The notes under the pieces: model-generated
The model's input: the letters and a program-made list of their open reading frames with translations, nothing else
Told to the model about the DNA's origin: nothing
The model's database searches: none
Source of the DNA: Candidatus Kapaibacterium sp.
GTDB taxonomy: Bacteria > Bacteroidota > Ignavibacteria > Kapaibacteriales > UBA961
Length of the DNA: 64,000 nucleotides
Reading direction: 5' to 3'
Assembly: GCA_046328995.1 (NCBI GenBank)
Contig: JAXLVN010000003.1
Location: forward strand, 431,784-495,783
Program-made: the position numbers and the translations under genes
In this document: positions 1 to 12,548 of the stretch, in pieces
Numbering within the stretch: the stretch's first letter is position 1
Layout: every line of letters begins with the position of its first letter

Positions 1-472
1 ACGGCTTGTCGGAGGCAAGGAGAGCGAGGAACTGCTGCTTCGTCATTCCTGATTGTGTTGGGGCGGCAGAATTGGCGGTTGTGACGGGGAGTCCGGCTGC
101 ATTCCATTTCATAATACCGCCTTGTAATTCATAGACTTCCTTGTATCCTGAAGATCGCATTTTACTCGCAGCCGCTGCGCTTCGAGCGCCGCTGAGGCAA
201 TAGACAAGCACCGGCTTCGATTTATCGACGTGAGCGATTTGTGTATCGAAAGAATCACCGTTCCAATCAATATTCATCGCGTTTTGGAGATGACCTTTCG
301 CGAATTCTGCCGGCGTACGAACGTCGATAATAGGTGCTGATGGCAATGCTTTGATTTTCGCAGCAAAGTCATTCGCTTCAAGCTTCGTTTGGGCGTTTTT
401 GGACTGTTCGCCTGTGCAGCTATTAGCGAGAAATGCGAGAATTACGAGAACGATAACGCTGTATTTTTTCAT
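1..472 (-). CDS. Rhodanese-domain lipoprotein; the 3' end is truncated by the window edge. Start codon at 470-472 overlaps the trxA stop in an ATGA arrangement.
   Basis: The reverse-complement translation begins [19 protein letters not shown], a lipoprotein signal with lipobox Cys. It continues ...[24 protein letters not shown]...[15 protein letters not shown], the rhodanese active-site Cys loop. Confidence 0.75.
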
Positions 473-780
473 GCAGTTGTATTGGAATATTGATTAATAA
501 TCTGTTCGAGTGTTCGAGCCGGTACCACGCCGGACTGCCGCCATTTAATTTCACCATTTTTGAAGAGAATCAGCGTCGGCACGCCACGAATTTGGTAGCT
601 TTCGGCTGCTTTTGGATTGGTATCGACATCAATTTTGATGATCATTGCTTTGTCACCGACATGAGTTTTGACTTCATCCAAAATCGGCGCCATCATCTTG
701 CACGGACCGCACCATTCAGCCGAAAAATCGACAAGTGTTGGCGTATCTCGTTGAATAAGCTCAGAGAATTTGGGTTTCAT
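469..780 (-). CDS. trxA: Thioredoxin
   Basis: 103 aa with the canonical WCGPC active site and thioredoxin-length fold. Confidence 0.9.
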
Positions 781-1234
781 GGGCTAATAAAATTGTAGGA
801 TGCATTGTTACTGTAGATTTAATTGAATTCGAAATTAAACACGCCGCTTCCGATTTCTGAATCACCCGTTCAGCGCGCTCGCGGTCTTTTTCATGGACGA
901 TGACCACGGTCGGTTCGAGGATAATTTCCGTCATAAGAAATTTCCCATCTACTTGCTCCAGCTTGCCCTTGGACTTACAGCTAAAGCGAAGAAACTCTAA
1001 TTTGGAATTCTCGGCAATTGCGAGGAAGGTTGTCATCAAACAGCTACTGACCGAGGCGGTAAAGAGATGTTCGGGTGACCAAATCCCGGGGATTCCTTTC
1101 GGGAATTCCGGTGGGGTGGCTACTTCGATGCAACTGCTTGCGTCGCCGGTCGAGAGCTTGAGTTCGGGCGAACACATCATGCCCTTGCGTTCTTGATTCC
1201 ATTCAACATCGATTGAATAATAATGAGCTTCCAT
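761..1234 (-). CDS. OsmC/Ohr-family peroxiredoxin-like protein
   Basis: 157 aa with two conserved Cys (..[10 protein letters not shown].. and ..[10 protein letters not shown]..), typical of the OsmC/Ohr fold. Overlaps trxA by 20 nt in the same orientation. Confidence 0.6.
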
Positions 1235-1268
1235 AGTTGTAATTATAGTATATGTAATGAGTTGTCAA

Positions 1269-1517
1269 TTATTTCTGCTGCACTTCTTCGTAGTCGATCA
1301 TATCGAGGTCATTCGTATTTGCAGGCGCTTGCGGCACCGCACAGCTTGATGTGCCGCAGCAGCCGGTATTAGTAACTGCTTGAAAGAGAAAGAATACAGC
1401 AATAAAACCCGAAAAAGTGTCATGCATTTGAATTGCCTGCACGCCGATAAAAATACCAAGCCCGAGACGCAGCCAGCGCATGAAATGCCAACCGGTAAGA
1501 ACGGTGTGAATAGTCAT
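1269..1517 (-). CDS. Small two-TM membrane protein with a C-terminal Cys cluster (CCGTSSC); DUF2892/YgaP-C-terminal-like
   Basis: 82 aa with two hydrophobic helices followed by TGCCGTSSC. Shares 4 nt with the downstream rhodanese gene, so likely in the same operon. Confidence 0.45.
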   Translation of the reverse strand: MTIHTVLTGWHFMRWLRLGLGIFIGVQAIQMHDTFSGFIAVFFLFQAVTNTGCCGTSSCAVPQAPANTNDLDMIDYEEVQQK

Positions 1518-1834
1518 GATAGCTTCCCTTGAAGACTCTGCCAGCTGCCACCATTATGGACATTCGTATAACCATTGGACTTGAGAATGCCTTTGGCTGT
1601 AGCACTGCGCATACCTGAGGCACAGCAGGTAATGATCGGCGTATTTTTGTCTTTGAATTTGCTGAGGTTATTGCTTAATTGATCCACCGGTATATTGATT
1701 GAATTTTTAATATGTCCGCTTGCATATTCACCGTTGGAGCGAACATCGACAATGAGGGCTCCCTGCGAGGCGAGCTCCCGGTAATCGACCGGAGTGCCGC
1801 CTCCGAATATCGTTTTGAAGAGTTGAATGATCAT
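1514..1834 (-). CDS. Rhodanese-domain protein (single domain). I prefer the internal start at 1834; the ORF runs on to 1894.
   Basis: ...IVDVRSNGEYASGHIKNSINIP...IITCCASGMRSATAKGIL, a CxxGxR active-site loop. The start at 1834 avoids a 49-nt overlap with the upstream gene. Confidence 0.7.
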   Translation of the reverse strand: MIIQLFKTIFGGGTPVDYRELASQGALIVDVRSNGEYASGHIKNSINIPVDQLSNNLSKFKDKNTPIITCCASGMRSATAKGILKSNGYTNVHNGGSWQSLQGKLS

Positions 1835-1845
1835 TAGAATAAGTA

Positions 1846-2121
1846 TTAAGATTGTAAATAATTTACATCGAGCCACGAGCCGCCGTTGTAGCATTCGATG
1901 CCTTGCTGAGACAGATACCGTTGCGCTTGTCCGCTGCGGTTACCCGAAGCACAGCAGAGGACTAACGGTAGGGTAAACTGCTTCAGCTCGTCAACACGCT
2001 GCGGTATCTCCTGCAAGGGGATGTTGATTGAACCAACGACATTGCCGCCCATGAATTCGCCATAGGACCGTACATCGACTACGGTGCCTTTTTTTTCTTT
2101 AATGATTTGTTCGAGAGTCAT
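1846..2121 (-). CDS. Rhodanese-domain protein (single domain)
   Basis: 91 aa: ..VVDVRSYGEF..GSINIP...LVLCCASGNRSGQAQRYL, a rhodanese catalytic loop. Confidence 0.75.
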   Translation of the reverse strand: MTLEQIIKEKKGTVVDVRSYGEFMGGNVVGSINIPLQEIPQRVDELKQFTLPLVLCCASGNRSGQAQRYLSQQGIECYNGGSWLDVNYLQS

Positions 2122-2442
2122 ATGTATTTCTCATAGAATGTTATTGAATGCATTGTATTACGTTGGCGGTGAATTTCTCTGAATCGCACTCACCCTTCAC
2201 TCTGTACGATGATGCTTCCGGATAGCACACCGATCGAGAGGCGGGGGAGAATTTACGGAATACTTCGCTCTGAGTGCGCGTCGCTGAAAGAGCAAATATC
2301 CGAGACTCATCATCGCCGGTAAATTCGATTGTATATCTCTGTGCTTTGTGTGGTTGCTTTAGGATCAGTAGCTTTTTATAGATGGAGATGGAGTTGGGTT
2401 TGATGTAATTTTCGCCCTTCTATACCTTGACCTTCGCCGCAC

Positions 2443-3918
2443 CTAGACTGCTTTATACTGAGCCATCATGCCCGATTCTTCATGTTCCAGATTATGGCAA
2501 TGGTAGAGGAATTTTCCAGTAAAGCCATCAAATGGAATCAATACACTTACTTTTTCACCCGGCATGCAGAGCACGGTGTCTTTCCAGCCGGCTTCGAGCG
2601 GTGAGAGAGCTTCTCTACCACCGGTGCGGCTGAGAATCTGAAACAGCACGCCATGGACATGCATCGGGTGCGGTTCTTTGCCATTGGAATTGTCAAAAGT
2701 CCATTTCTCCACTGTGCCGCGGGTGACCGTCACGTCAATACGTTGAGAATCATAGACATTGCCATTGATCGTGTGCTGCATCATTCCCGAGGAACTGTTC
2801 ATGGAATGCGTGTTCGCAATGTCAAAACTGCGGGAACTTGTTGCCATGGCTTCTGTTAAAGGAGCAATAGCCGAGAGCGAAGATGGCATCGAGAATGTAT
2901 CATTTCCGGTAGTGGTAATGGTAAATTTCATAATCTTGAATTCCTGCTGACCCTGTGAAGTACCTCCGTCAAAACCCTTGCTTACTAAATAGATCTCCGA
3001 GTAGGGAGCTAGTGTGCTGAAATCGACTATCAGATCCGCACGCTCCCCGGGACCGAGGATCAGAGAACGTACTTCTACCGGCCGTGGGAGTAGTCCGCCA
3101 TCATTTCCGATCACCGTAAACTTGGCATTGTTGGAGAGTGCGAGGTTGTAAATCCTTGCATTAGAACCATTAAGCACCCGAACTCGGTACTGCGCCGTGG
3201 TTACGTCCTGATACGGCGCGTAGAGTCCGTTGACGAGGATATACTCTCCCATATAGCCGGTCATTTGTTCCATCATGCTTGGCGCATAGGTAAATCTCCC
3301 CGATGCGATACGTTTATCCTGAATCACGAGGAAGAGTTCGCGGAGTCCATAGGGTAAATTCAGCGCTGATTCTTCGCTGTCATTGACCACCATGAGTCCT
3401 GCCAGCCCCTGAAATACCTGTTTTGCTGTGGTGCCTTCGGCATGCGGATGATACCAATACAGACCCGCCCGTTGTGCAATTGTGAATGAATAGGATGTTG
3501 ATTTTCCCTGACTTATGCTGTTATCCGGGTGCCCGTCCATAGTGGCCGGCACCTTGAGTCCATGCCAGTGAATATTGGTTGCTTCGCTGAGGGTATTCGA
3601 CAGGGTAATCGATACATTTTGTCCAGATTGCACGCGGATACTCGGTCCCAAAATACTGCCTGCCTGATAGCCAAAGCCGTTAATTGTGCCGAAACCCGGA
3701 AGGGGCATGGATACTTCCTGCGCTGCGAGTGTCATCGAAGAGTTACCGGTAGTCGGCGGCATCGTAAGCGGAGTCGTGAAATTACCCTCGGTTACAGATA
3801 CCGGATGTCCGGTGGCCATGGTATTTTCCGGCATGCATGACGATAGAAAGGGCACTGTGCCGCCGGCCAGGACTCCTGCTGAAGCCAACGATAGTTTAAG
3901 AAAGTCTTTGCGATTCAT
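2443..3918 (-). CDS. Multicopper oxidase (CueO/laccase-like) with a Tat-type signal. The ORF continues upstream to 4239, but I place the start at MNRKDFLK.
   Basis: Copper-ligand motifs HWHGLKVP...DGHP, HPH and, near the C-terminus, HCHNLEHEESGMM. The N-terminus MNRKDFLKLSLASAGVLAGG is a twin-arginine-like (RK) signal. Confidence 0.8.
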   Translation of the reverse strand: MNRKDFLKLSLASAGVLAGGTVPFLSSCMPENTMATGHPVSVTEGNFTTPLTMPPTTGNSSMTLAAQEVSMPLPGFGTINGFGYQAGSILGPSIRVQSGQNVSITLSNTLSEATNIHWHGLKVPATMDGHPDNSISQGKSTSYSFTIAQRAGLYWYHPHAEGTTAKQVFQGLAGLMVVNDSEESALNLPYGLRELFLVIQDKRIASGRFTYAPSMMEQMTGYMGEYILVNGLYAPYQDVTTAQYRVRVLNGSNARIYNLALSNNAKFTVIGNDGGLLPRPVEVRSLILGPGERADLIVDFSTLAPYSEIYLVSKGFDGGTSQGQQEFKIMKFTITTTGNDTFSMPSSLSAIAPLTEAMATSSRSFDIANTHSMNSSSGMMQHTINGNVYDSQRIDVTVTRGTVEKWTFDNSNGKEPHPMHVHGVLFQILSRTGGREALSPLEAGWKDTVLCMPGEKVSVLIPFDGFTGKFLYHCHNLEHEESGMMAQYKAV

Positions 3919-3991
3919 AGTTGTATGTTTCTTTTCGTCTTCAGAGAGGAACCTCGTCGCACGTCGGACAGTCGTCCATCTGACCGTACAA

Positions 3992-4633
3992 TCACCAGGC
4001 GCCGGTCTCTTTGGGACTATTGATAATGGTGTCGAATTCCGCTTGTGAGATAAATTGCGCTGTATAGGCGCCGCCGGAGAGTAATAGTTGACTGTAAAAT
4101 GAACGTAGATGATTCCTGCTGCCCTTGGTGAGATTTTCGTACACGAACCGTATATCTTGATTATCACTTTTTGCAAGCTGCTTGTGAAGATCAAAAATAT
4201 CGAGGTCTTCGATAGTCGCACCGACGGTATAGGCATCAAGCAAACTTTTGCTGCCTTGCGCTACCAATTGAGTGTATAATACCTGAAGTGCACTATCAGC
4301 GTACTCACCGGCTCCACGGCTCCCAACAGGGTCCGTGATAGAGTATTTGTTTAATACCGTCAGCACGGCATCGGTATGAGTCTGTTCACTCGATGCGATA
4401 TTTGAAAAAATTGTCGTATTCCACTTTATATAGAGAGCTGTATAGACATCCCGGGCGAGCTTTTCTTCTTCTCTCATATAGATCAGACCCTTGAGCTCAT
4501 CGGCGCTGATGGCTTCTTGAGGAAAGGCGTTGATCTGACTCGTCCTATCGGGATAGGGCGATGTGCTGTTGTTTTGACAGCCCTGAACCACAGCACCGAG
4601 GGCAACGATGAAGATGATAAGGTACGATTTCAT
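3992..4633 (-). CDS. DUF2202-like ferritin-like-domain lipoprotein. Start taken at MKSYLIIF.; the upstream ORF extension is ignored.
   Basis: Lipoprotein signal MKSYLIIFIVALGAVVQGC, then a four-helix ferritin-like pattern (..EEEKLARDVY..E..H). Lies immediately upstream of the MCO in the same orientation. Confidence 0.5.
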   Translation of the reverse strand: MKSYLIIFIVALGAVVQGCQNNSTSPYPDRTSQINAFPQEAISADELKGLIYMREEEKLARDVYTALYIKWNTTIFSNIASSEQTHTDAVLTVLNKYSITDPVGSRGAGEYADSALQVLYTQLVAQGSKSLLDAYTVGATIEDLDIFDLHKQLAKSDNQDIRFVYENLTKGSRNHLRSFYSQLLLSGGAYTAQFISQAEFDTIINSPKETGAW

Positions 4634-4683
4634 AGGATAGATAAATAGTTCATACAAATAAGCTTGTACCAATACGACATAGG

Positions 4684-4896
4684 TCAGGATCCTGTCGTCG
4701 AGGACTTTGGCTTTTGAAATAAATTCAGCAGCAGACCGCCCATGAGGGCGCCATAGGCGGTGCTGTTGAGGGGACGGGACGTGATAGCGCATGTGCCGCT
4801 TTCACACCCGACGAAGGAATAATACGCATAGCCACCGACGGCTCCGAGCAGTACTCCAATGATCGTCAATCTATAGGTTCGGAAGAATTTTTTCAT
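4684..4896 (-). CDS. Small two-TM membrane protein with a GCESGTC motif
   Basis: 70 aa: MKKFFRTYRLTIIGVLLGAVGGYAYYSFVGCESGTCAITS...GALMGGLLLNLF. Sits 5 nt downstream of the PDO-rhodanese gene in the same orientation. Confidence 0.45.
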   Translation of the reverse strand: MKKFFRTYRLTIIGVLLGAVGGYAYYSFVGCESGTCAITSRPLNSTAYGALMGGLLLNLFQKPKSSTTGS

Positions 4897-4901
4897 AGAG
4901 C

Positions 4902-6323
4902 TCAGAGGAGAGTCGTAGGGCAGACATAGTCGGAAATTTGAAATTCACCGGAACGCTTAATCGCAGCGAATCCGCCGTTGACGTCAATTAAGTTGTTGAA
5001 TCCACGTGCTTTGAGTATCGAGATGAATACCATCGAACGGTATCCGCCGGCGCAGTGGACATAGTAGGTGCGATCTTTGCTTATCAGACTCATGCTTTCA
5101 TCGATATAGTCGAGCGGGGCATTGACGGCGCCGATGATATGTTCGGAATTGAATTCACTCGCCTTCCGTACATCGAGAATATTAATACTTCCGGACGCAT
5201 GTGCTGCTGCAAATTCTTCGACATTCACTGTTGGAATGGTATCGAGAGAATAGCCCTCCTGCACCCAAGCAGCTGTGCCGCCTTTCAAAAATCCTATTGC
5301 ATGATCATACCCTACGCGTGCCAGCCTGGTGATGATTTCCTCTTCACGACCGGGCTCGGCTATGAGCAGAATATCCTGCGTAATATCCTTGACCAATGTG
5401 CCGACCCAGACGGCAAAGCTGCCGTCGATACCGATGTTTATCGATCCCGGAATAAAACCCTTGCTGAATTTTTCGGCGGCACGGGTGTCGATGACCACGG
5501 GTCTATTCGTCGAAATAACTGCTTCAAATTCCTTGGCATTGAGAAAATGCATGCCTCGCTCTAATACGTCGTCAAAGCTGTCGTAGCCGGTAATATTCAT
5601 CACCACATTTTTAGGGAAATAGCCCGGAGGCGGCATGAGCCCCGTGAGAATTTCATTGATAAAATCTTCTTCACTAAGATCCGGTCGCAGCGCATAATTC
5701 GTTTTTTTCTGATTGCCGAGCGTGTCGGACGTTTCTTTGCTCATGTTTTTACCGCATGCACTACCCGCGCCGTGAGCCGGATAGACGATCAGATCATCAC
5801 TGAGGGGCATGATTTTGCGATGCAGAGAGTCGTACAGATGCGCTGCTAACTTCTCCTGAGTCATTTCGGCTATCACATGCTGCGCAAGGTCGGGACGCCC
5901 TACATCACCAATAAACAACGTGTCTCCTGTGAAAATTGCCTGCTCTTTGCCGTTCTCATCAATCAAAAGATAACAGCTGCTTTCCATCGTGTGCCCCGGA
6001 GTATGAATGAGGCGGATGGTGGCATTTCCAAGCGTAAATTCCTGCCCATCTGTAGCGATGAGTGCGTCAAAACCCGTCTTCATGAGCGTCGGACCATAGA
6101 CAATCGTCGCACCGGTCGCTTTGGCCAAATCGATATGACCCGAAACGAAATCAGCATGAAAGTGCGTTTCAAATATATATTTTATGACAGAATTACGTTT
6201 TTTGGCAAGCTCCAGATACGGCTTGATTTCACGCAATGGATCGATGATGGCTGCTTCGCCGTTACTTTCAATATAATATGCGCCCTGAGCAAGGCAACCG
6301 GTATAGATCTGTTCGATATTCAT
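4902..6323 (-). CDS. Persulfide dioxygenase (MBL-fold, ETHE1/CstB-like) fused to two rhodanese domains
   Basis: N-terminal MBL metal-binding motifs (HFHADFVSGH, ..HTPGHT..), followed by two rhodanese modules (...VVIDTRAAEKF..GFIPGSINI...; ...ILDVRKASEFNSEHIIGAVNAP....YYVHCAGGYRSM). The 473-aa length fits CstB-type fusions. Confidence 0.8.
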   Translation of the reverse strand: MNIEQIYTGCLAQGAYYIESNGEAAIIDPLREIKPYLELAKKRNSVIKYIFETHFHADFVSGHIDLAKATGATIVYGPTLMKTGFDALIATDGQEFTLGNATIRLIHTPGHTMESSCYLLIDENGKEQAIFTGDTLFIGDVGRPDLAQHVIAEMTQEKLAAHLYDSLHRKIMPLSDDLIVYPAHGAGSACGKNMSKETSDTLGNQKKTNYALRPDLSEEDFINEILTGLMPPPGYFPKNVVMNITGYDSFDDVLERGMHFLNAKEFEAVISTNRPVVIDTRAAEKFSKGFIPGSINIGIDGSFAVWVGTLVKDITQDILLIAEPGREEEIITRLARVGYDHAIGFLKGGTAAWVQEGYSLDTIPTVNVEEFAAAHASGSINILDVRKASEFNSEHIIGAVNAPLDYIDESMSLISKDRTYYVHCAGGYRSMVFISILKARGFNNLIDVNGGFAAIKRSGEFQISDYVCPTTLL

Positions 6324-6377
6324 ACGTTGTTCCTTTATAGAATATGATGAGAGTACTGAGTAATTGTCAATTCGTAC

Positions 6378-6983
6378 CTATAAAATCTGCTTGTGCCCGA
6401 CATAGCGTACAATTGCCGCCGGACCCTGATGATACTTGCCTTCCTCGAGCGTAACATGCTCGGAAACAAGAAGGTCGGTATGCAACTCTTCGAAATCCTC
6501 TGCCAGGAGCGCTTCGGTGTAGAGCATCGTAGGGTCTTTAGGACCACCGGAACTAAACCCAAGCTGATCCGGATGAAATGCTTCGAGGATTATCGTGCCG
6601 CCGGGCTTGAGCCACTGCACCATCTTGCGATGAATCAGTCGCCGGTCGGCAGCAGAGAAGTGTGCGTAAATCAAGGCAATTGCATCAAACATAGCGGCGG
6701 GATATTCTTCCGTGAGAGCATCGGCGAAATGATATGAGAGTTCGACACCACGTGCCTGTGCCCATTGAAGTGCTTTTCGCTTACCCATCTCACTGAGGTC
6801 GAATGCCTCGACCGTCCAGCCTTGCTCGGCTGCATAGACGGCATTGCGTCCCTCACCCTCGCATGGGAAGAGTATATGCCCCGGACGAGGCAGCTTCCTC
6901 AGCTCACCGGCAAAAAACACATTGGGTTCGGTCCCGAATGCATATTCATGAGCGCTGTAGCGTTCGTTCCAAAAATTATTCAT
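6378..6983 (-). CDS. Class I SAM-dependent methyltransferase, TehB/thiol-methyltransferase-like
   Basis: 201 aa with motif I ..ILFPCEGEGRNAVYAAEQGWTVEAFDLSE.., closely resembling the TehB GxGxGRN motif, then a D/E-loop and motif II. Confidence 0.65.
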   Translation of the reverse strand: MNNFWNERYSAHEYAFGTEPNVFFAGELRKLPRPGHILFPCEGEGRNAVYAAEQGWTVEAFDLSEMGKRKALQWAQARGVELSYHFADALTEEYPAAMFDAIALIYAHFSAADRRLIHRKMVQWLKPGGTIILEAFHPDQLGFSSGGPKDPTMLYTEALLAEDFEELHTDLLVSEHVTLEEGKYHQGPAAIVRYVGHKQIL

Positions 6984-7007
6984 AGGTATAGTAATTTTGA
7001 AGAAACA

Positions 7008-7379
7008 TTACTTCTGCAAGAACATTTTAATAGCAATCATGACGAGCACCACCGCAAAGATTTTCCGAAGTATATCTTGTGGTATGTGTGATACATATTT
7101 AGCACTTATAAACGCACTGATAAAAAATGCCACACCCAATATTACCGCCGTCTTGATATCGGCATTGCCTGCTTTGTAGTACTGATAGGCGGCAAGCGAA
7201 CCGACCGGCATCACAAGCATCAATAACGTCGTGCCCTGCGCCATTTGCTGCGAGTAGCCGAGGAAGAGTACAAGTGCGGGAATTATGACGACCGCTCCGC
7301 CTAGCCCCAAAAAACCGCTGAGCATTCCACCTACAATCCCGATAAGGGCGATGATGATAAAGTTGTTGAGTTCCATCAT
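7008..7379 (-). CDS. TauE/SafE-family (sulfite/anion exporter) half-size membrane protein
   Basis: About 123 aa, four predicted TM helices, and the glycine-rich ..GIVGGMLSGFLGLGGAVVIIP.. signature of the TauE/SafE/DUF81 family. Confidence 0.6.
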   Translation of the reverse strand: MMELNNFIIIALIGIVGGMLSGFLGLGGAVVIIPALVLFLGYSQQMAQGTTLLMLVMPVGSLAAYQYYKAGNADIKTAVILGVAFFISAFISAKYVSHIPQDILRKIFAVVLVMIAIKMFLQK

Positions 7380-7582
7380 TCGGCCTTTTTCTTGGTCGAA
7401 ATTCCAAATGGCAGGTAGAGAGGGCATACGCCGACAAAACTTGTCAGTATAAAAACTCCGGATAAAATCAACAAGATAACGGCAGCGGTGCCGGTAATCT
7501 GATTGGCAAAATAAAGACTCACAATTGCAAGCGCTGCGATAATGCGAGCGGCTTTGTCGAGGGTTCCCATGTTCGGCTTCAT
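7376..7582 (-). CDS. DUF2892 (YgaP C-terminal-like) small membrane protein. Start taken at the internal MKPNMGTLDKA.
   Basis: About 68 aa: MKPNMGTLDKAARIIAALAIV....GVCPLYLPFGISTKK, the typical DUF2892 pattern. Stop overlaps the TauE start (ATGA). Confidence 0.6.
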   Translation of the reverse strand: MKPNMGTLDKAARIIAALAIVSLYFANQITGTAAVILLILSGVFILTSFVGVCPLYLPFGISTKKKAE

Positions 7583-7678
7583 GATAATAACGGAATAATG
7601 AATAAATACAATTGAACTGTTTGACTGACTTTCTGATACAAAACTACGGCTCTCACAAAACAATGTCTGTGATGTCTG

Positions 7679-8287
7679 TCACAGAAGGATAATTTTATTA
7701 CGGGAGAGGGTAATCAGCTCTTCATGTTCCATTATTTTGAGCACGCGACTCACTGCCTCACGGCTGACACCGAGTTCGTCAGCAAGCTGCTGATGCGTTA
7801 TCGCTACATCCTTTGACTGATACAAGGCCGTTTTTTGCCGAAGTAATTGCAGCAATCGTGAGTCGAGCTTCTGAAACGCAAGAGCATTGACGACGCCGAG
7901 CAATTCCTCAAATCTCTTTTGATAGAGCATAAACATGAAATCGCTCCATTCGGGGTACTCACGAATCCACTCACTTGCTTTCTGCACCGGAATCAGCAGC
8001 AATTCTACATCTTCCTCGACAATGGCCTTGATTTTACTGGTGTCGTGGTGAATTCCGGCAAGAAACGACATAATACAGCTCTCGCCCGGCTTGATGTAAT
8101 ACAGTAGAATTTCACGTCCTTCTTCGTCTGTCCGAACCACCTTGATACTACCTTTTATTACAATCGGTATTGAATGAATATACGAATTGATATCCAAAAT
8201 GACCGTTTCGGCCGGAAATGACTTTACATGACCCGAGGCGTATGCCGCTTCGTTCAAAAGCGGCTGAAAAATAGCTGTCTGATTCAT
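7679..8287 (-). CDS. Crp/Fnr-family transcriptional regulator. An alternative upstream start exists at 8317.
   Basis: N-terminal cNMP-binding-like beta-roll and C-terminal HTH (..ITHQQLADELGVSREAVSRVLKIMEHEELI..). Confidence 0.75.
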   Translation of the reverse strand: MNQTAIFQPLLNEAAYASGHVKSFPAETVILDINSYIHSIPIVIKGSIKVVRTDEEGREILLYYIKPGESCIMSFLAGIHHDTSKIKAIVEEDVELLLIPVQKASEWIREYPEWSDFMFMLYQKRFEELLGVVNALAFQKLDSRLLQLLRQKTALYQSKDVAITHQQLADELGVSREAVSRVLKIMEHEELITLSRNKIILL

Positions 8288-8749
8288 AGCAATTGTTTGG
8301 AGAAATGAATGGAACACTGTGCGCGCCGATTGCTGCGTGAAGGCAGGTGCAGCGCGCGCTTTGAGAACGGAAGATTACTTTGATTGTTCGAATTGTCCTG
8401 CTCCTGACCGTGTTTATGACCGGATGAAGCAAACGCACCCACTTCTCTGCATCCAAAACTACGGATGTTCAGCAGCTTGAACAATGACTTATGTCATATT
8501 TCGAGTCCGGTAGTAAAGCAGAGCACTGCGTCGTCTGCACATACAGTTTTTTTCGCCAAACTCACCTCCAGAGCCATAGGCGCAGCAGTGGCGCAAAAGG
8601 GGAGAGAATCGATGCTGTCAGCTGATAATATCGGACGATTTCCGGCTGCTGCTGCTATACAAGGAATCCGCGATTCGGGTGTTTTGTATAGACAAACCCC
8701 GAAAAAACTCGTATTTTGCGCAAAAAATTCCATCATCTGAAGGTCTGTC

Positions 8750-9382
8750 ATGTCTATTGTCATTGCTCTTGTCAGTTATCTCATCGGCGCAATTCCATTT
8801 GCTTATTTGCTTGTTCGCTACCGCACCGGTAAGGATATTAGAAGCGAGGGCAGCGGTAATGTCGGCGTGCTCAACAGCTACGAGGTCACGGCGAGTAAGT
8901 CGATAGGAATCATCGTGTTGGTGCTGGATCTGCTCAAGGGGTACGGCGCAGTGATGCTGGCTCGGTGGATCACCGGGAATGATTTTTTTAGTGCCGGACT
9001 CGCCGGTGTATTTGTCGTACTCGGTCATAATTTCAATATTTTTCTCCGTGGAAAAGGCGGACGCGGGCTCGCACCTGCCGCCGGTGTTTCGCTGGCAATT
9101 AACCCGATTACTCTGATTTTTTGGTGTCTCATGTGGCTCACGGGCTATTATGTCATTCGCAGAAATGTGCATGTCGGCAATGTATCGGGTACAATCGGCG
9201 CAGCACTGTTACTCGCGACAGCACCAACGCAAATCGTACGTGCTCTGATGCAATTACCATGCGAACCTCTCATGCAGCACACGATCCTGATGATGTTTAT
9301 CTGTATGCAAATTTTTATCCGGCATCTCGACCCAATGCGCGAACTCATGGCAGAGTGGAATAACGAACCCGATATCGAATAA
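8750..9382 (+). CDS. plsY: Glycerol-3-phosphate acyltransferase PlsY
   Basis: 210 aa, multi-TM, with motifs GSGNVGVLN, HNF and GGKG. Confidence 0.8.
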   Translation: MSIVIALVSYLIGAIPFAYLLVRYRTGKDIRSEGSGNVGVLNSYEVTASKSIGIIVLVLDLLKGYGAVMLARWITGNDFFSAGLAGVFVVLGHNFNIFLRGKGGRGLAPAAGVSLAINPITLIFWCLMWLTGYYVIRRNVHVGNVSGTIGAALLLATAPTQIVRALMQLPCEPLMQHTILMMFICMQIFIRHLDPMRELMAEWNNEPDIE

Positions 9383-9386
9383 CGAG

Positions 9387-12300
9387 TTATTGTATAAACA
9401 CCGCAGCCGGAAGCTCTACAATAAACGTTGCACCTTTCCCGATTTCACTCTCGCACCATACCTGACCATTCATCACTTCGACGAGCTTTTTGACAATCGA
9501 AAGTCCGAGACCCGAGGAATGTTCGCCGCCGGTCGGCTTCGCTGACAATCGCACATACCGCCCGAAGAGCTTTTTCTTGTCCTCTGCGCTCATGCCCGGA
9601 CCTTCGTCACGGACTTCAAGTCGAACCATACTATGGACTTGCGCTACACTCACTTCGACTGTTTTGTCTCCGGGAGAGAATTTAATAGCATTCGAGACTA
9701 AATTATCGAGAATTTCATGAATTGCCGATTGGTCGGCGAGCATCAGCGTTTCTTTCGGAGGAAGGGTTAATTTCAGACGGATATTCTTGGCTGAGGCACG
9801 CTCCATAAAGTCACGCACGATGCTTGTAGCGAGCGCGGAAGCGTCCATTTTTACGACATTGAGATTCACCTTGCCGGACTCTATCGCATTGACATCCAAG
9901 AGGTTAATTATAATATCCCGCATCCGACCTGCCGTCGTCTCAATTTTCTCCATCATACTTTTGACTTCGTCCGGCGGGAGCATCGTAAAGTAATTTTTGA
10001 CATTCGATGCCGTGAGCGCGATACCGGCGATGGGATTTTTGAGGTCATGCGCCACGATACCAAGCACTTCGGTTTTGTCCTCATTGAGTTGTTTTAGATT
10101 TCGATTCAACTCATCCATTTCAATAAGTGTATTTGCCAGCTCATGATTGACCTGCGCAAGTGATGCGTTGGCAATGGAAATTTCCTTGGTTCTTTCCTGC
10201 ACGGTGACTTCGAGTTCGGCTTTTCGTGCGACCAAGCTTCTTACTCTCAGATGATACACCGCAAAGCCCGCTCCGGCAAGTGCGAGAATTGCCATAATCC
10301 TGAACCACCAGGTTTGATAAAAAAATGGACTCACCGTAAAGCTGATTCGCGCCCCGGTTTCATTCCACACGCCATCATTATTGCAGGCAATCACCTGAAA
10401 CGTATATTTTCCCGGCGGGAGACTCGTATAATATGCGGTGCGACGATTACCGGCATCGATCCAATTGGAGGAATTTTCAAGGATTCTATACTTGAATTGT
10501 ACATTCGAAGGGATGAGCAGACTCAGGGCTGTGTAGGTGAATTCAATCTGATTTGTGCCGGCAGGGAAGAGGAGTGTATCTGCGGGGGCAAAGGAAATAC
10601 TGTCTGCGGTGATTTGTTCAATAACTACGTTGGGCAGAAGCGTGTTATTGCTCATCTTGCCGGTACGTACCACCGCCATACCGTGTACTGTCGGGAAGCA
10701 AATACGACCATCCTTCGTTTGCCATGCGGCCGGCATAAATCCTACCGTACACTCGGCTGATTTCATACCGTCCTGTTCGCGATACACCACCGGAACCACC
10801 TTTTTTGCCGTGCCGTTCATCACATGTTCGATGTCACGTTTGACAATGCGATAGACTCCCTTATTGCTGCTTATCCAGAAATTACCGCTTGCATCCTCGG
10901 TAATCGAATAGACCCTGTTGTCGAAGAGTCCGTCCTGCGAGGTAATGGTCGTGAATTTCCCGTCGAGGAGGCGGGTGAGACCATCGCGATGACTGCCGAA
11001 CCACAAGGCGCCCGATTTATCCTCATACATACAACGGATTTGATTCGACGGCAAGCCATTTTGCACGGTATAACTCGTAAACCTACCATTAGAATAGCAG
11101 CTCACGCCTCCACCATAACAGGATATCCACAACCTTCCTTGTTTATCTTCGAGCATACCCGCAATAATACCCGGCAAGAGTCCGCCGGATTTCGGCTCGG
11201 TTCGCATAATTGCATTATCTACTACTATCATAATTCCGTTCGACGTACCGATCCACAGCGTTCCTTTCTTGTCCTCATGGAACGAATAGGCAATATCGTT
11301 CTGTGACTTGCTGCCGAATGGTACGGACGTAAATTTTCCATTGGAATACTTATCCACACTGCCCGAACTTCCACCAATCCAAAGAGTTCCGTCACGAGCT
11401 TCATAGAGTGCCGTTATCGGATTATCGCTCGAGAGTCCATTGTTAGAATTATACGTTGTGCTGACAGTACCATTCATCCTGCTTAGCCCTTGGGACGTGG
11501 CCACCCACAATCCGTCCTTTGTCTCGATAATTGAGCGGATGTAATCGCCGGAGAGACCTTCTTTGGTCGTAAGCGTGGTAAAGACAGCATCACGCAATCT
11601 GTGCAATCCGCCGGTAAAGGTGCCTATCCACACGCTGCCTTCACGGTCTTCGAGAAGGGAAATCACCGGATCATCGGCAAGCTCTTCCGCTGTGAAATCT
11701 GCGAGAACACCATTGCTGTATCTCGATAATCCATGAGCAGTTGCTATCCACAATGTACCATCTCTGTCCGACAAAAGCTGCTGAACCGGATTGCCTGAAA
11801 AGCGTCCGATGAGTGTGGCTGTACTGCTATTACCGCCGGAGAGACGGACGACATTATCACTTGCCGACACCCACACATTGCCTGCTTTATCGCTGCAGAG
11901 TCCGGCGACCGGTACGGCGGGGAATTGCCCTGCCCGCACGGCTTTGCCGGAGCTATAGGTGTAGAGACCATCCGTAGCGCCTATCCACACGGTGCCGTCA
12001 GGCGTCTGGCAGAAGGAATATTTATATCCTTGAGTAATTTCATTAACCTTTAGTATTATATCAAGCTTGGATTGAAATATCCGGAGAACGCCGGTTGAAG
12101 TACCCACCCACACGGCACCGGAGGCATCGGTCCATAATTTATTGATCGATCGGGAGAGTTTTCCGGCATTTTTGTAGGGTGCAAGCGAACTAAACGTCGT
12201 ACCGTTGAATTGAAATAATCCCTGCGACTGCGTGCCGACAATCATGGTGCCGCTCAGGTCTTCGGTAAGAGCGACGATGCCGAGTGCAGAAAGCTCGGTG

Positions 12301-12548
12301 GTGGTATGGCCGTAATTGACAAATCGTACACCGTCGAAGCGCACGAGTCCTTCGTCGAAGGTGCCGAGCCATAGATAGCCGCTTTTGGATTGATAAAGCG
12401 CAGGTATCCCGTTGGATGGTAATCCGTTGCCGGATTTCCACTGGTCGTGGACATACTGATTGGGTGCTTTATTGCCATCGAGACCCCGGAGTACGGGGTG
12501 GGTGGAAAGAAATACAGTAAGTGTAAGCAGGGTAACAACTAATCTCAT
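9387..12548 (-). CDS. Sensor histidine kinase with an N-terminal signal peptide, a periplasmic beta-propeller repeat array, a Y_Y_Y domain, one TM, then HisKA and HATPase_c. No receiver or HTH domain.
   Basis: 1053 aa. Repeated ..G.LWIGT..GL..YS.G.F.. propeller blades; TM WWFRIMAILALAGAGFAVYHL; H-box IVAHDLKNPIAG; ATPase G-boxes ..DEGPGMS.. and GLGLSIVKKLVEVMNG. The ORF ends after HATPase_c. Confidence 0.8.
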   Translation of the reverse strand: MRLVVTLLTLTVFLSTHPVLRGLDGNKAPNQYVHDQWKSGNGLPSNGIPALYQSKSGYLWLGTFDEGLVRFDGVRFVNYGHTTTELSALGIVALTEDLSGTMIVGTQSQGLFQFNGTTFSSLAPYKNAGKLSRSINKLWTDASGAVWVGTSTGVLRIFQSKLDIILKVNEITQGYKYSFCQTPDGTVWIGATDGLYTYSSGKAVRAGQFPAVPVAGLCSDKAGNVWVSASDNVVRLSGGNSSTATLIGRFSGNPVQQLLSDRDGTLWIATAHGLSRYSNGVLADFTAEELADDPVISLLEDREGSVWIGTFTGGLHRLRDAVFTTLTTKEGLSGDYIRSIIETKDGLWVATSQGLSRMNGTVSTTYNSNNGLSSDNPITALYEARDGTLWIGGSSGSVDKYSNGKFTSVPFGSKSQNDIAYSFHEDKKGTLWIGTSNGIMIVVDNAIMRTEPKSGGLLPGIIAGMLEDKQGRLWISCYGGGVSCYSNGRFTSYTVQNGLPSNQIRCMYEDKSGALWFGSHRDGLTRLLDGKFTTITSQDGLFDNRVYSITEDASGNFWISSNKGVYRIVKRDIEHVMNGTAKKVVPVVYREQDGMKSAECTVGFMPAAWQTKDGRICFPTVHGMAVVRTGKMSNNTLLPNVVIEQITADSISFAPADTLLFPAGTNQIEFTYTALSLLIPSNVQFKYRILENSSNWIDAGNRRTAYYTSLPPGKYTFQVIACNNDGVWNETGARISFTVSPFFYQTWWFRIMAILALAGAGFAVYHLRVRSLVARKAELEVTVQERTKEISIANASLAQVNHELANTLIEMDELNRNLKQLNEDKTEVLGIVAHDLKNPIAGIALTASNVKNYFTMLPPDEVKSMMEKIETTAGRMRDIIINLLDVNAIESGKVNLNVVKMDASALATSIVRDFMERASAKNIRLKLTLPPKETLMLADQSAIHEILDNLVSNAIKFSPGDKTVEVSVAQVHSMVRLEVRDEGPGMSAEDKKKLFGRYVRLSAKPTGGEHSSGLGLSIVKKLVEVMNGQVWCESEIGKGATFIVELPAAVFIQ

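Follow-up and report, generated by a model that had tools for sequence, protein, structure and literature searches.

A candidate reactive sulfur species detoxification island with a Crp-family regulator in Candidatus Kapaibacterium

Background

Sulfide and persulfide homeostasis is known mainly from Firmicutes and Proteobacteria, in which sqr-pdo or cst operons are under control of the CsoR, ArsR, or sigma-54 type. In CstB, the persulfide dioxygenase (PDO) of the Staphylococcus aureus cst operon (cstR, tauE, cstA, cstB, and sqr), a loop cysteine S-sulfonates itself and the sulfonate passes to the persulfidated rhodanese cysteine to give thiosulfate (2026 preprint, PMC12934615). Here, we describe a related cluster of 14 genes from Candidatus Kapaibacterium sp. 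(assembly GCA_046328995.1, contig JAXLVN010000003.1, forward-strand positions 431,784-495,783). The whole stretch of DNA that was analyzed, 64,000 nt long, is referred to as the window, and coordinates are window positions unless a contig is named. Our preferred reading, to which a probability of roughly 60% is given, is that the cluster is a two-unit island for the detoxification of reactive sulfur species (RSS; persulfide and sulfane sulfur), in which a Crp-family protein would activate unit 1 from a class-II-type promoter and a multicopper oxidase (MCO) would be a recruited cuprous oxidase.

Like the cst operon, the island encodes a CstB-type three-domain PDO-rhodanese, a TauE-family protein, and extra sulfurtransferases, and its presumed task is likewise the clearance of thiol persulfides to thiosulfate. 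Unlike the cst operon, it has a Crp-family protein and a CRP-type box in place of the CsoR-family CstR, and its TauE protein is half-size and paired with a YgaP-like transmembrane (TM) protein. Three Cys-motif membrane proteins, a methyltransferase, OsmC, thioredoxin (Trx), a rhodanese-Trx protein, a DUF2202 protein, and the MCO are added, whereas sulfide:quinone oxidoreductase (SQR) and a CstA-type sulfurtransferase are missing from the window. The BigR/Blh operons of Xylella and Agrobacterium and the SqrR/FisR sqr-pdo operons of Proteobacteria also combine PDO and rhodanese, as a fusion or as separate proteins, with TauE-like proteins and a role in sulfide-stress detoxification (PMC5823870); in contrast, the island has no ArsR- or sigma-54-type regulator, and PDO precedes rhodanese in its fusion, as it does in CstB. 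The yrk-type 11-gene cluster of Bacillus licheniformis is similar in being a large co-directional set with a regulator, a CstB-like PDO-rhodanese, small sulfur carriers, and TauE, but it has a CsoR-like repressor and a two-component system where the island has a Crp-family protein, and the accessory genes differ (PMC9918477).

Gene organization

The gene set was defined by the open reading frame (ORF) listing of the window and by gene calls on L001, an identical 43-kb metagenome contig. Domains were assigned by using Pfam gathering thresholds, NCBIfam cutoffs, and PDB matches, and Rfam was used for RNA. A first-pass annotation, made from the sequence of the window, had described 14 co-directional minus-strand genes with overlapping or near-zero spacing. 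The array was recovered from both sources, with 14 consecutive genes spanning 1-8317 in the ORF listing. Overlaps and short gaps are present (intergenic distances in operon order of 96, -4, 24, 54, 5, 50, 73, 321, 11, -4, 34, -20, and -4 nt), but the spacing is not near zero throughout: a 321-nt gap at 2122-2442 splits the array into two units.

Pfam gathering thresholds were met by 13 of the 14 proteins, the exception being an 82-aa protein, and an NCBIfam equivalog cutoff was reached by thioredoxin alone. The rhodanese and metallo-beta-lactamase (Lactamase_B) calls, for which the first-pass annotation had proposed a profile-based check, passed Pfam thresholds when it was run. Features are given below in operon order.

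7679-8287, minus strand: Crp/Fnr-family regulator, 202 aa (Pfam PF00027 cNMP_binding, 40.1 bits; PF13545 HTH_Crp_2, 44.5 bits)
7668-7683, minus strand: CRP-type palindrome TGTGACAGACATCACA, putative operator (perfect palindrome; overlaps the crp stop codon)
7639-7646, minus strand: TAGTTTTG, a match to the Bacteroidota -7 element TAnnTTTG (begins 21 nt past the box)
7376-7582, minus strand: YgaP-like TM (DUF2892) small membrane protein, 68 aa, CPLY motif (Pfam PF11127, 73.7 bits)
7008-7379, minus strand: half-size TauE/SafE-family membrane protein, 123 aa (Pfam TauE, 76 bits; 4-nt overlap with the YgaP-TM gene)
6378-6983, minus strand: class I S-adenosylmethionine methyltransferase, Slr1183-like, 201 aa (Methyltransf_25/11; PDB 2KW5 at 5.9e-38)
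4902-6323, minus strand: CstB-like PDO with a pseudo-rhodanese and a catalytic rhodanese domain, 473 aa (Lactamase_B, 52.8 bits; Rhodanese, two matches)
4684-4896, minus strand: DUF6132 small membrane protein, 70 aa, GCxSGTC motif (Pfam PF19628, 28.8 bits)
3992-4633, minus strand: DUF2202 ferritin-like lipoprotein, 213 aa (Pfam PF09968, 203.5 bits; PDB 3Q4N, MJ0754, 3.5e-57)
2443-3918, minus strand: CueO-like three-domain MCO, 491 aa (Cu-oxidase_3, Cu-oxidase_2, Cu-oxidase)
2122-2442, minus strand: non-coding spacer between unit 1 and unit 2, 321 nt (no ORF of 40 aa or longer)
1846-2121, minus strand: single-domain rhodanese, 91 aa, CCASGNRS active-site loop (Pfam Rhodanese, 42 bits)
1514-1834, minus strand: single-domain rhodanese, 106 aa (Pfam Rhodanese, 64.7 bits; also 106 aa in the L001 call)
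1269-1517, minus strand: 82-aa membrane protein (sm82), GCCGTSSC motif (no Pfam or NCBIfam family)
761-1234, minus strand: OsmC/Ohr-family thiol peroxidase-like protein, 157 aa (Pfam OsmC, 56.9 bits)
469-780, minus strand: thioredoxin, WCGPC (TIGR01068, 110.8 bits against a cutoff of 96.8)
1-472, minus strand: rhodanese-thioredoxin fusion lipoprotein, N-terminal 157 aa in the window (Pfam Rhodanese, 75 bits)

The last gene is cut by the left window edge; on L001 it encodes 242 aa in full, with a WCAPC thioredoxin domain. An upstream ATG at 1894 would extend the 106-aa rhodanese to 126 aa with a hydrophobic N-terminus. The OsmC and Trx genes of the first-pass annotation were both recovered (Pfam OsmC and TIGR01068 matches), as was a Crp/Fnr regulator at the upstream end (cNMP_binding and HTH_Crp_2). 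Where four stand-alone rhodaneses had been counted, however, three rhodanese genes are present (the 91-aa and 106-aa proteins and the fusion lipoprotein).

Persulfide dioxygenase-rhodanese and sulfur-handling proteins

The 473-aa PDO-rhodanese aligns end to end with 3TP9 (6.8e-65) and with 3R2U (2.3e-59), which we take to be the S. aureus CstB entry. Fe(II)-ligand motifs of the PDO domain are intact (HFHAD, of the form HxHxD, at residue 54, HTPGH at 107, GDT at 133, and PAHG at 182). The active-site loop GAGSAC190G191K aligns with GAGSPCGK of CstB (C201-G202), and in the C-terminal rhodanese Cys424 lies in HCAGGYRS, which aligns with HCQSGIRS of CstB (C408); the middle rhodanese domain has no Cys and is thus a pseudo-rhodanese. 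Since both mechanism-defining cysteines (Cys190 and Cys424) are kept, the CstB-like label already given to this fusion is justified. No match to the Blh model was obtained at its cutoff (NCBIfam NF040641, 45.9 bits against a cutoff of 625).

Among the remaining sulfur-handling proteins, the CxxGxRS loops of the rhodaneses are intact, and Cys65 and Cys132 of OsmC are placed consistently with the conserved pair of that family. No SQR, DsrE, or DsrC homolog was found by tblastn anywhere in the 64-kb window, and Pfam and NCBIfam gave no CsoR- or ArsR-type match among the 14 proteins, in agreement with the first-pass statement that SQR and a CstR/SqrR-type repressor are absent; the Crp-family protein is the sole regulator of the cluster. 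The sulfurtransferases in the window are single-domain rhodaneses and the rhodanese-Trx fusion, with no multidomain protein of the CstA type. The presumed TauE/SafE exporter passed its Pfam threshold as a family match but is not full-length, covering profile positions 1-110 of 237 (full-length TauE in L034, a gene-rich relative, is 268 aa).

Three small Cys-motif membrane proteins had been predicted, and their motifs (CPLY, GCxSGTC, and GCCGxxxC) proved to be conserved in homologs: the GCxSGTC motif of DUF6132 is kept in 13 loci, and sm82 homologs in 12 loci share a GCC..GC motif, usually in a block of sm82, DUF6132, Trx, and rhodanese. The sm82 family is a two-helix protein with a conserved N-[VI]-G-C-C-[GA]-x-x-G-C segment, and homologs occur for example at L034:20647-20860 and L079:18005-18217 (approximate positions, from tblastn starts). 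The label of a TehB-like methyltransferase was not upheld: no TehB match was obtained, TPMT stayed below threshold (23.9 bits; cutoff, 26), and Slr1183 (2KW5) is the best structural relative.

Conservation across Bacteroidota

In order to determine how common this gene mix is, homologs were counted within about 10 kb of PDO-rhodanese genes at 80 loci from different GTDB species (Bacteroidota; PDO-rhodanese 58-73% identical). Queries were every cluster protein and the proteins seen in L034. Among the 80 species, the genes found near PDO were TauE (about 42), Crp (39), Trx (30), YgaP-TM (28), SQR-like (20), rhodaneses (at least 20), TPMT-type methyltransferase (17), 1-Cys peroxiredoxin (Prx; 16), DUF6132 (14), OsmC (11), the 82-aa protein (11), DsrC/DsrE (10), Slr1183-type methyltransferase (9), DUF2202 (4), and MCO (0). 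Up to 16 of the tested families are co-directional in Chitinophagaceae loci, and L034-like relatives include SQR, DsrE, and DsrC.

Gene order in these islands is a mosaic, and the census counts make the island a common mosaic feature of Bacteroidota. Islands of this kind also extend to Ignavibacteria-like lineages. The co-conservation in related genomes that had been named beforehand as a check therefore holds for the core genes, and the description of an unusual gene mix does not apply to most of the core. The MCO is the only out-of-the-ordinary gene of the island.

A secreted protein without a Pfam match was also observed in these loci (annotated 503-aa ORF at L034:14273-15784; also in L019, L035, L038, and L079). 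It contains repeated GG-containing segments resembling beta-propeller blades, adjoins DUF2202 or Trx in 11 of the 80 sulfur islands, and holds the place taken by the MCO in the window.

Crp-family regulator and predicted operator

The regulator, which the first-pass annotation had mentioned only briefly, is the more notable feature of the island, as a conserved operator and a promoter geometry could be defined for it. It aligns with 3DV8 (a structural-genomics Crp/Fnr protein and the closest solved structure) and with E. coli CRP, and has a cNMP-binding-like beta-roll and a C-terminal Crp-type helix-turn-helix. The protein shares with E. coli CRP the fold, the R-E-x-x-x-R recognition helix (here S-R-E-A-V-S-R), which suits a TGTGA half-site, and the TGTGA-N6-TCACA box; it differs in that the cAMP-binding Arg82 is replaced by Thr83, in an invariant pocket Cys, and in the Bacteroidota -7 partner element TAnnTTTG. 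The loss of Arg82 and the score (NF008732, 66.2 bits against a cutoff of 266) speak against CRP proper, and the single Cys71 in place of an N-terminal Cys cluster for [4Fe-4S] speaks against FNR proper. Scores were under the NCBIfam cutoffs for CRP, FixK, and NtcA.

Cys71 is the single Cys of the regulator and opens the phosphate-binding cassette in the alignment with E. coli CRP. It is present in 40 of 41 aligned sequences, the remaining one having a gap. A second Cys at +6 is found in 35 of 41 (Ala in the window), and an adjacent third Cys (C-x5-CC) in 25 of 41. Only Cys71 is kept in the window regulator and its close relatives (L033-L035; L171, a contig with the same unit 1; and L174, from the closest syntenic genome). 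The C-x5-CC motif occurs in the effector pocket of most island-linked Crp homologs (L007-L086). In 3DV8, C-x5-C is found at the aligned position, and the motif may accordingly mark a subfamily wider than the sampled Bacteroidota one.

The palindrome TGTGACAGACATCACA is located some 100 nt ahead of the start of YgaP-TM and is the single match with at most one mismatch to the box consensus in 64 kb. A box at the crp stop codon with the 21-nt spacing is also found in L171 and L174. At the 80 related loci, 26 of 86 box sites have their center 30-130 nt ahead of a cluster gene, where 1.9 would be expected (binomial P of about 3e-22, uncorrected for genome relatedness and thus overstating the independence of the sites). 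Positions recur at about -60 to -68 from PDO, -72 to -76 from OsmC, -54 from YgaP-TM, and directly after crp; the OsmC-linked box (about 75 nt upstream) precedes OsmC-SQR-DsrC-DsrE operons in relatives. The element TAnnTTTG begins exactly 21 nt past the box in 16 of 85 sites, the window included, and every other offset was seen at most once. Box-linked islands also occur in cultured species, for example Spirosoma panaciterrae DSM 21099 (L022) and Kordia periserrulae DSM 25731 (L053).

If transcription is assumed to start a few nucleotides past the -7 element, which would be around 7630-7635 in the window, the box centers at about -42, the class II position of CRP/FNR activators. This position, together with the lack of a -33 TTTG at the usual distance in the window promoter, points to activation rather than repression and suggests a class-II-type activator role for the adjacent Crp-family protein at the predicted operator. 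The palindrome could alternatively be the crp terminator hairpin and bind no protein, and a terminator scan did flag TCTGTGACAGACATCACAGA, followed by a T-rich tail. This appears extremely improbable: it is the half-sites, not base-pairing potential, that are conserved between loci, the box also precedes PDO, OsmC, and YgaP-TM where no gene ends, and its distance to the -7 element is fixed at 21 nt. A scan for promoters and terminators of the sigma-70 type was uninformative for a Bacteroidota-type genome.

Multicopper oxidase and DUF2202

All four copper motifs are present in the MCO, along with three Cu-oxidase domains, a lipobox, and a Tat-like signal in an RK variant (N-R-K-D-F-L-K), which agrees with its earlier description as Tat-secreted; among 120 MCO homologs, the Tat-type signal has RR in 69 and RK in 19. 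CueO is its best-scoring model, at 348.5 bits against a cutoff of 525. In its three cupredoxin domains, four copper motifs, and Tat-type export, and in having 58-65% identical homologs beside HMBD, HMA, and CusABC, it resembles periplasmic MCOs of the CueO/CopA type. It differs from these in scoring below the CueO cutoff, in lying inside a sulfur operon without other copper genes, and in its short Met-rich segments, the N-terminal Met-rich stretch of the copper-island homologs being largely lost.

Five of the six sampled contexts of those MCO homologs are copper-resistance islands (HMA, HMBD, and CusABC), which also carry DUF3347, Haem_bd, and MCOs of the type IX secretion system (T9SS) kind. 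One of them sits on an integrase/RteC mobile element, and none shares any other protein with the sulfur cluster. In the copper islands of L087, L172, and L173, which hold the closest homologs, two or three extra MCOs with a T9SS Por_Secre_tail, DUF8199, and HMBD proteins were observed; the extra MCOs suggest an elaborate secreted copper-oxidase system in Bacteroidota.

A context of another kind was seen for the homolog P0004 (64% identity), which is encoded on L171 within the same unit 1 as in the window, MCO included (Crp 78%, half-size TauE 78%, methyltransferase 54%, PDO 80%, DUF2202 63%, and MCO 64% identity, with YgaP-TM and DUF6132 also there). Past the MCO of L171 are an AT-rich spacer and then unrelated genes. 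L174, from a metagenome-assembled genome labeled Ignavibacteria, has proteins 72-93% identical to those of the window and is flanked by the same genes. It contains the box, YgaP-TM, TauE, a split PDO, DUF6132, DUF2202, a spacer of about 318 nt, and all of unit 2; the Trx domain of the last gene is missing at that locus, and MCO and methyltransferase are absent. These two genes are accessories that two lineages have kept and a third lacks. The PDO-rhodanese of L174 (L174:7310-8729) matches as two segments (residues 1-240 and 226-473) that lie in different frames, with no gene called; this reflects either a pseudogene with a frameshift or an error of assembly.

The similar L174 spacer ahead of unit 2 marks the 321-nt gap of the window as a genuine unit boundary. 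The 321-nt spacer gave no Rfam match and no CRP box with up to two mismatches, and its sequence is similar only to contigs of the same species. An origin as a gene remnant or as a homolog of the L174 spacer was rejected, there being no similarity beyond those contigs; the L174 spacer, of similar length, could not be aligned with it.

The DUF2202 ferritin-like lipoprotein of the first-pass annotation was recovered through its lipoprotein signal and its match to MJ0754. DUF2202 genes also lie inside the sulfur islands of L034, L035, L171, L174, and L176. DUF2202 and MCO were rejected as a conserved pair, with no MCO neighbor in 80 metagenome DUF2202 loci or at three further close homologs.

Flanking regions

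The intergenic region between crp and the divergent plsY gene (8750-9382) is unusually long at 462 nt (8288-8749). It has no Rfam match, CRP box, or convincing ORF, and matches same-species contigs only; no Rfam match was obtained in 1-9500 as a whole at E-values up to 1. Just past plsY lies a gene for a 1053-aa sensor histidine kinase (9387-12548, minus strand; Reg_prop, Y_Y_Y, HisKA, and HATPase_c), which is syntenic in L174 and split there into calls of 971 and 80 aa. Beyond the left window edge, the sequence directly downstream of the island (L001:16784-20913) encodes a MacB-type ABC efflux system together with an RND-type adaptor; a CDF cation-efflux gene lies there on the opposite strand. 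The arrangement recurs in L174, and metal-efflux genes therefore adjoin the island even without the MCO.

Discussion

Under the preferred reading of a two-unit detoxification island, unit 1 would consist of crp and, after it, YgaP-TM, half-size TauE, methyltransferase, PDO-rhodanese, DUF6132, DUF2202, and MCO, with transcription from the box-driven promoter. Sulfane sulfur would modify Cys71, by persulfidation or, for paralogs with C-x5-CC, through a polysulfide bridge. The PDO-rhodanese would turn thiol persulfides into thiosulfate or sulfite by the CstB mechanism, and the small Cys-motif membrane proteins and half-size TauE may carry either sulfur oxyanions or sulfane sulfur through the membrane. 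The methyltransferase, for which a relation to the H2S/methanethiol S-methyltransferase MddH is conceivable, may act on sulfide or thiols by S-methylation, and DUF2202 is a probable recurrent periplasmic accessory of sulfur islands. Unit 2 (two rhodaneses, sm82, OsmC, Trx, and the periplasmic rhodanese-Trx lipoprotein) would carry and reduce sulfane sulfur and repair persulfidated thiols. Most plausibly, the MCO, recruited into unit 1 in this lineage, would re-oxidize periplasmic Cu(I) generated by sulfide.

Several observations weigh against this reading. We infer sulfane sulfur to be the signal at Cys71 from two sources, the content of the regulon and the conservation of the Cys. Most characterized RSS sensors use a Cys pair, and in CstR, SqrR/BigR, and FisR such pairs form di- or polysulfide links, whereas the window regulator has one Cys where most of its relatives have C-x5-C(C), although its regulon content fits. 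A box that overlaps the promoter could equally repress. No second CRP box with up to two mismatches was found upstream of crp or of unit 2. The absence of SQR from the window leaves the reading without a named source of persulfide. As for the copper oxidase, it is missing from L174 and from all 80 of the other species near PDO, and is hence dispensable for the core function of the island. In a neighbor-joining tree of MCOs, the window and L171 copies were not resolved as sisters, so that one gain followed by loss was not distinguished from two gains.

The first-pass annotation had suggested a distinct copper-coupled pathway of RSS or polysulfide stress. In an integrated pathway of this kind, the MCO, with DUF2202, would act directly on sulfur species or Cu-S complexes in the periplasm and would be an essential, co-evolved part. 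What stands of this proposal is the recurrence of the MCO in the L171 operon: DUF2202 and MCO end a box-driven unit in two lineages that have diverged to 64% (MCO) and 80% (PDO) identity. All three periplasmic proteins (DUF2202, MCO, and rhodanese-Trx) are lipoproteins, and the reduced Met-rich stretch of the MCO could mark a change of substrate. The rest of the evidence makes an integrated pathway unlikely, in that neither the 80-species census, the 80 DUF2202 loci, nor L174 links an MCO to these genes and the sampled MCO homologs lie mostly in copper-resistance islands; the titles and abstracts of the papers found on MCOs with sulfide or sulfane sulfur gave no pointer to a sulfide-oxidizing MCO. 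The same patchy distribution, the one homolog on a mobile element, and the place of the MCO at a unit boundary beside the 321-nt spacer would suit the opposite explanation, that the MCO is a hitch-hiking copper-resistance gene, inserted as the last gene of unit 1 and functionally unconnected with sulfur, in an otherwise ordinary PDO-rhodanese operon. We consider this quite unlikely, given that the position of the MCO has been retained over substantial divergence (64% identity) without other copper genes, and that only 73 nt separate it from DUF2202, with no box or obvious promoter of its own.

A further question is whether the regulon answers to RSS at all. The signal might instead be thiol or oxidative stress, O2 or NO bound through a Cys71/His80 haem (as in CooA and HcpR), or selenium or tellurium, and the sulfur enzymes would then make up only a portion of a wider redox response. 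OsmC, Trx, and Prx act in peroxide and disulfide stress, CooA binds its haem through one Cys and one His in the effector domain, TPMT-type methyltransferases methylate Se and Te, and weak NCBIfam matches were obtained to families with selenoprotein variants. Those matches are all far under their cutoffs, however; His80 is conserved in close relatives only, the regulator has no FNR-type Cys cluster, and it is specifically PDO, SQR-DsrC-DsrE, and rhodanese operons that follow the box. A non-RSS signal is thus judged very unlikely.

The preferred reading of a Crp-activated RSS island can also be extended. Crp proteins with the pocket motif G-[ED]-[STA]-C...C(C) might be undescribed, Bacteroidota-wide direct sensors of sulfane sulfur, acting, in contrast to the CsoR- and ArsR-type repressors already known, as class-II activators from TGTGA-N6-TCACA boxes 21 nt before the -7 element on a regulon of PDO, SQR, DsrE/DsrC, OsmC, Trx, and Cys-motif membrane proteins. 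A copper-resistance oxidase would then have been captured in the lineage of the window, coupling periplasmic Cu(I)/sulfide chemistry to RSS sensing. This extension is put forward tentatively, and we hold it to be doubtful.

Conclusions

A CstB-type persulfide detoxification operon is already known, whereas the regulator family, operator, and promoter architecture appear undescribed. According to a 2026 review, most known RSS sensors belong to the CsoR, ArsR, and Fis superfamilies. Neither a prior Crp-family RSS regulator nor this Bacteroidota island was found in the literature searched, from which subscription journals were mostly excluded. Bacteroidota abound in wastewater, guts, and sulfidic sediments, yet no account of how they regulate sulfide chemistry was found.

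A testable hypothesis, that of an activator-type RSS sensor of the Crp family, follows from three features taken together: the conserved box, the constant spacing between it and the -7 element, and the invariant Cys of the pocket. The same features can be used to predict the RSS regulon throughout the phylum. DUF6132, the 82-aa CCG protein, DUF2202, and the secreted 503-aa ORF are candidates for new sulfur-handling roles, and the insertion of the MCO may serve as a small natural experiment on cross-talk between copper and sulfide.

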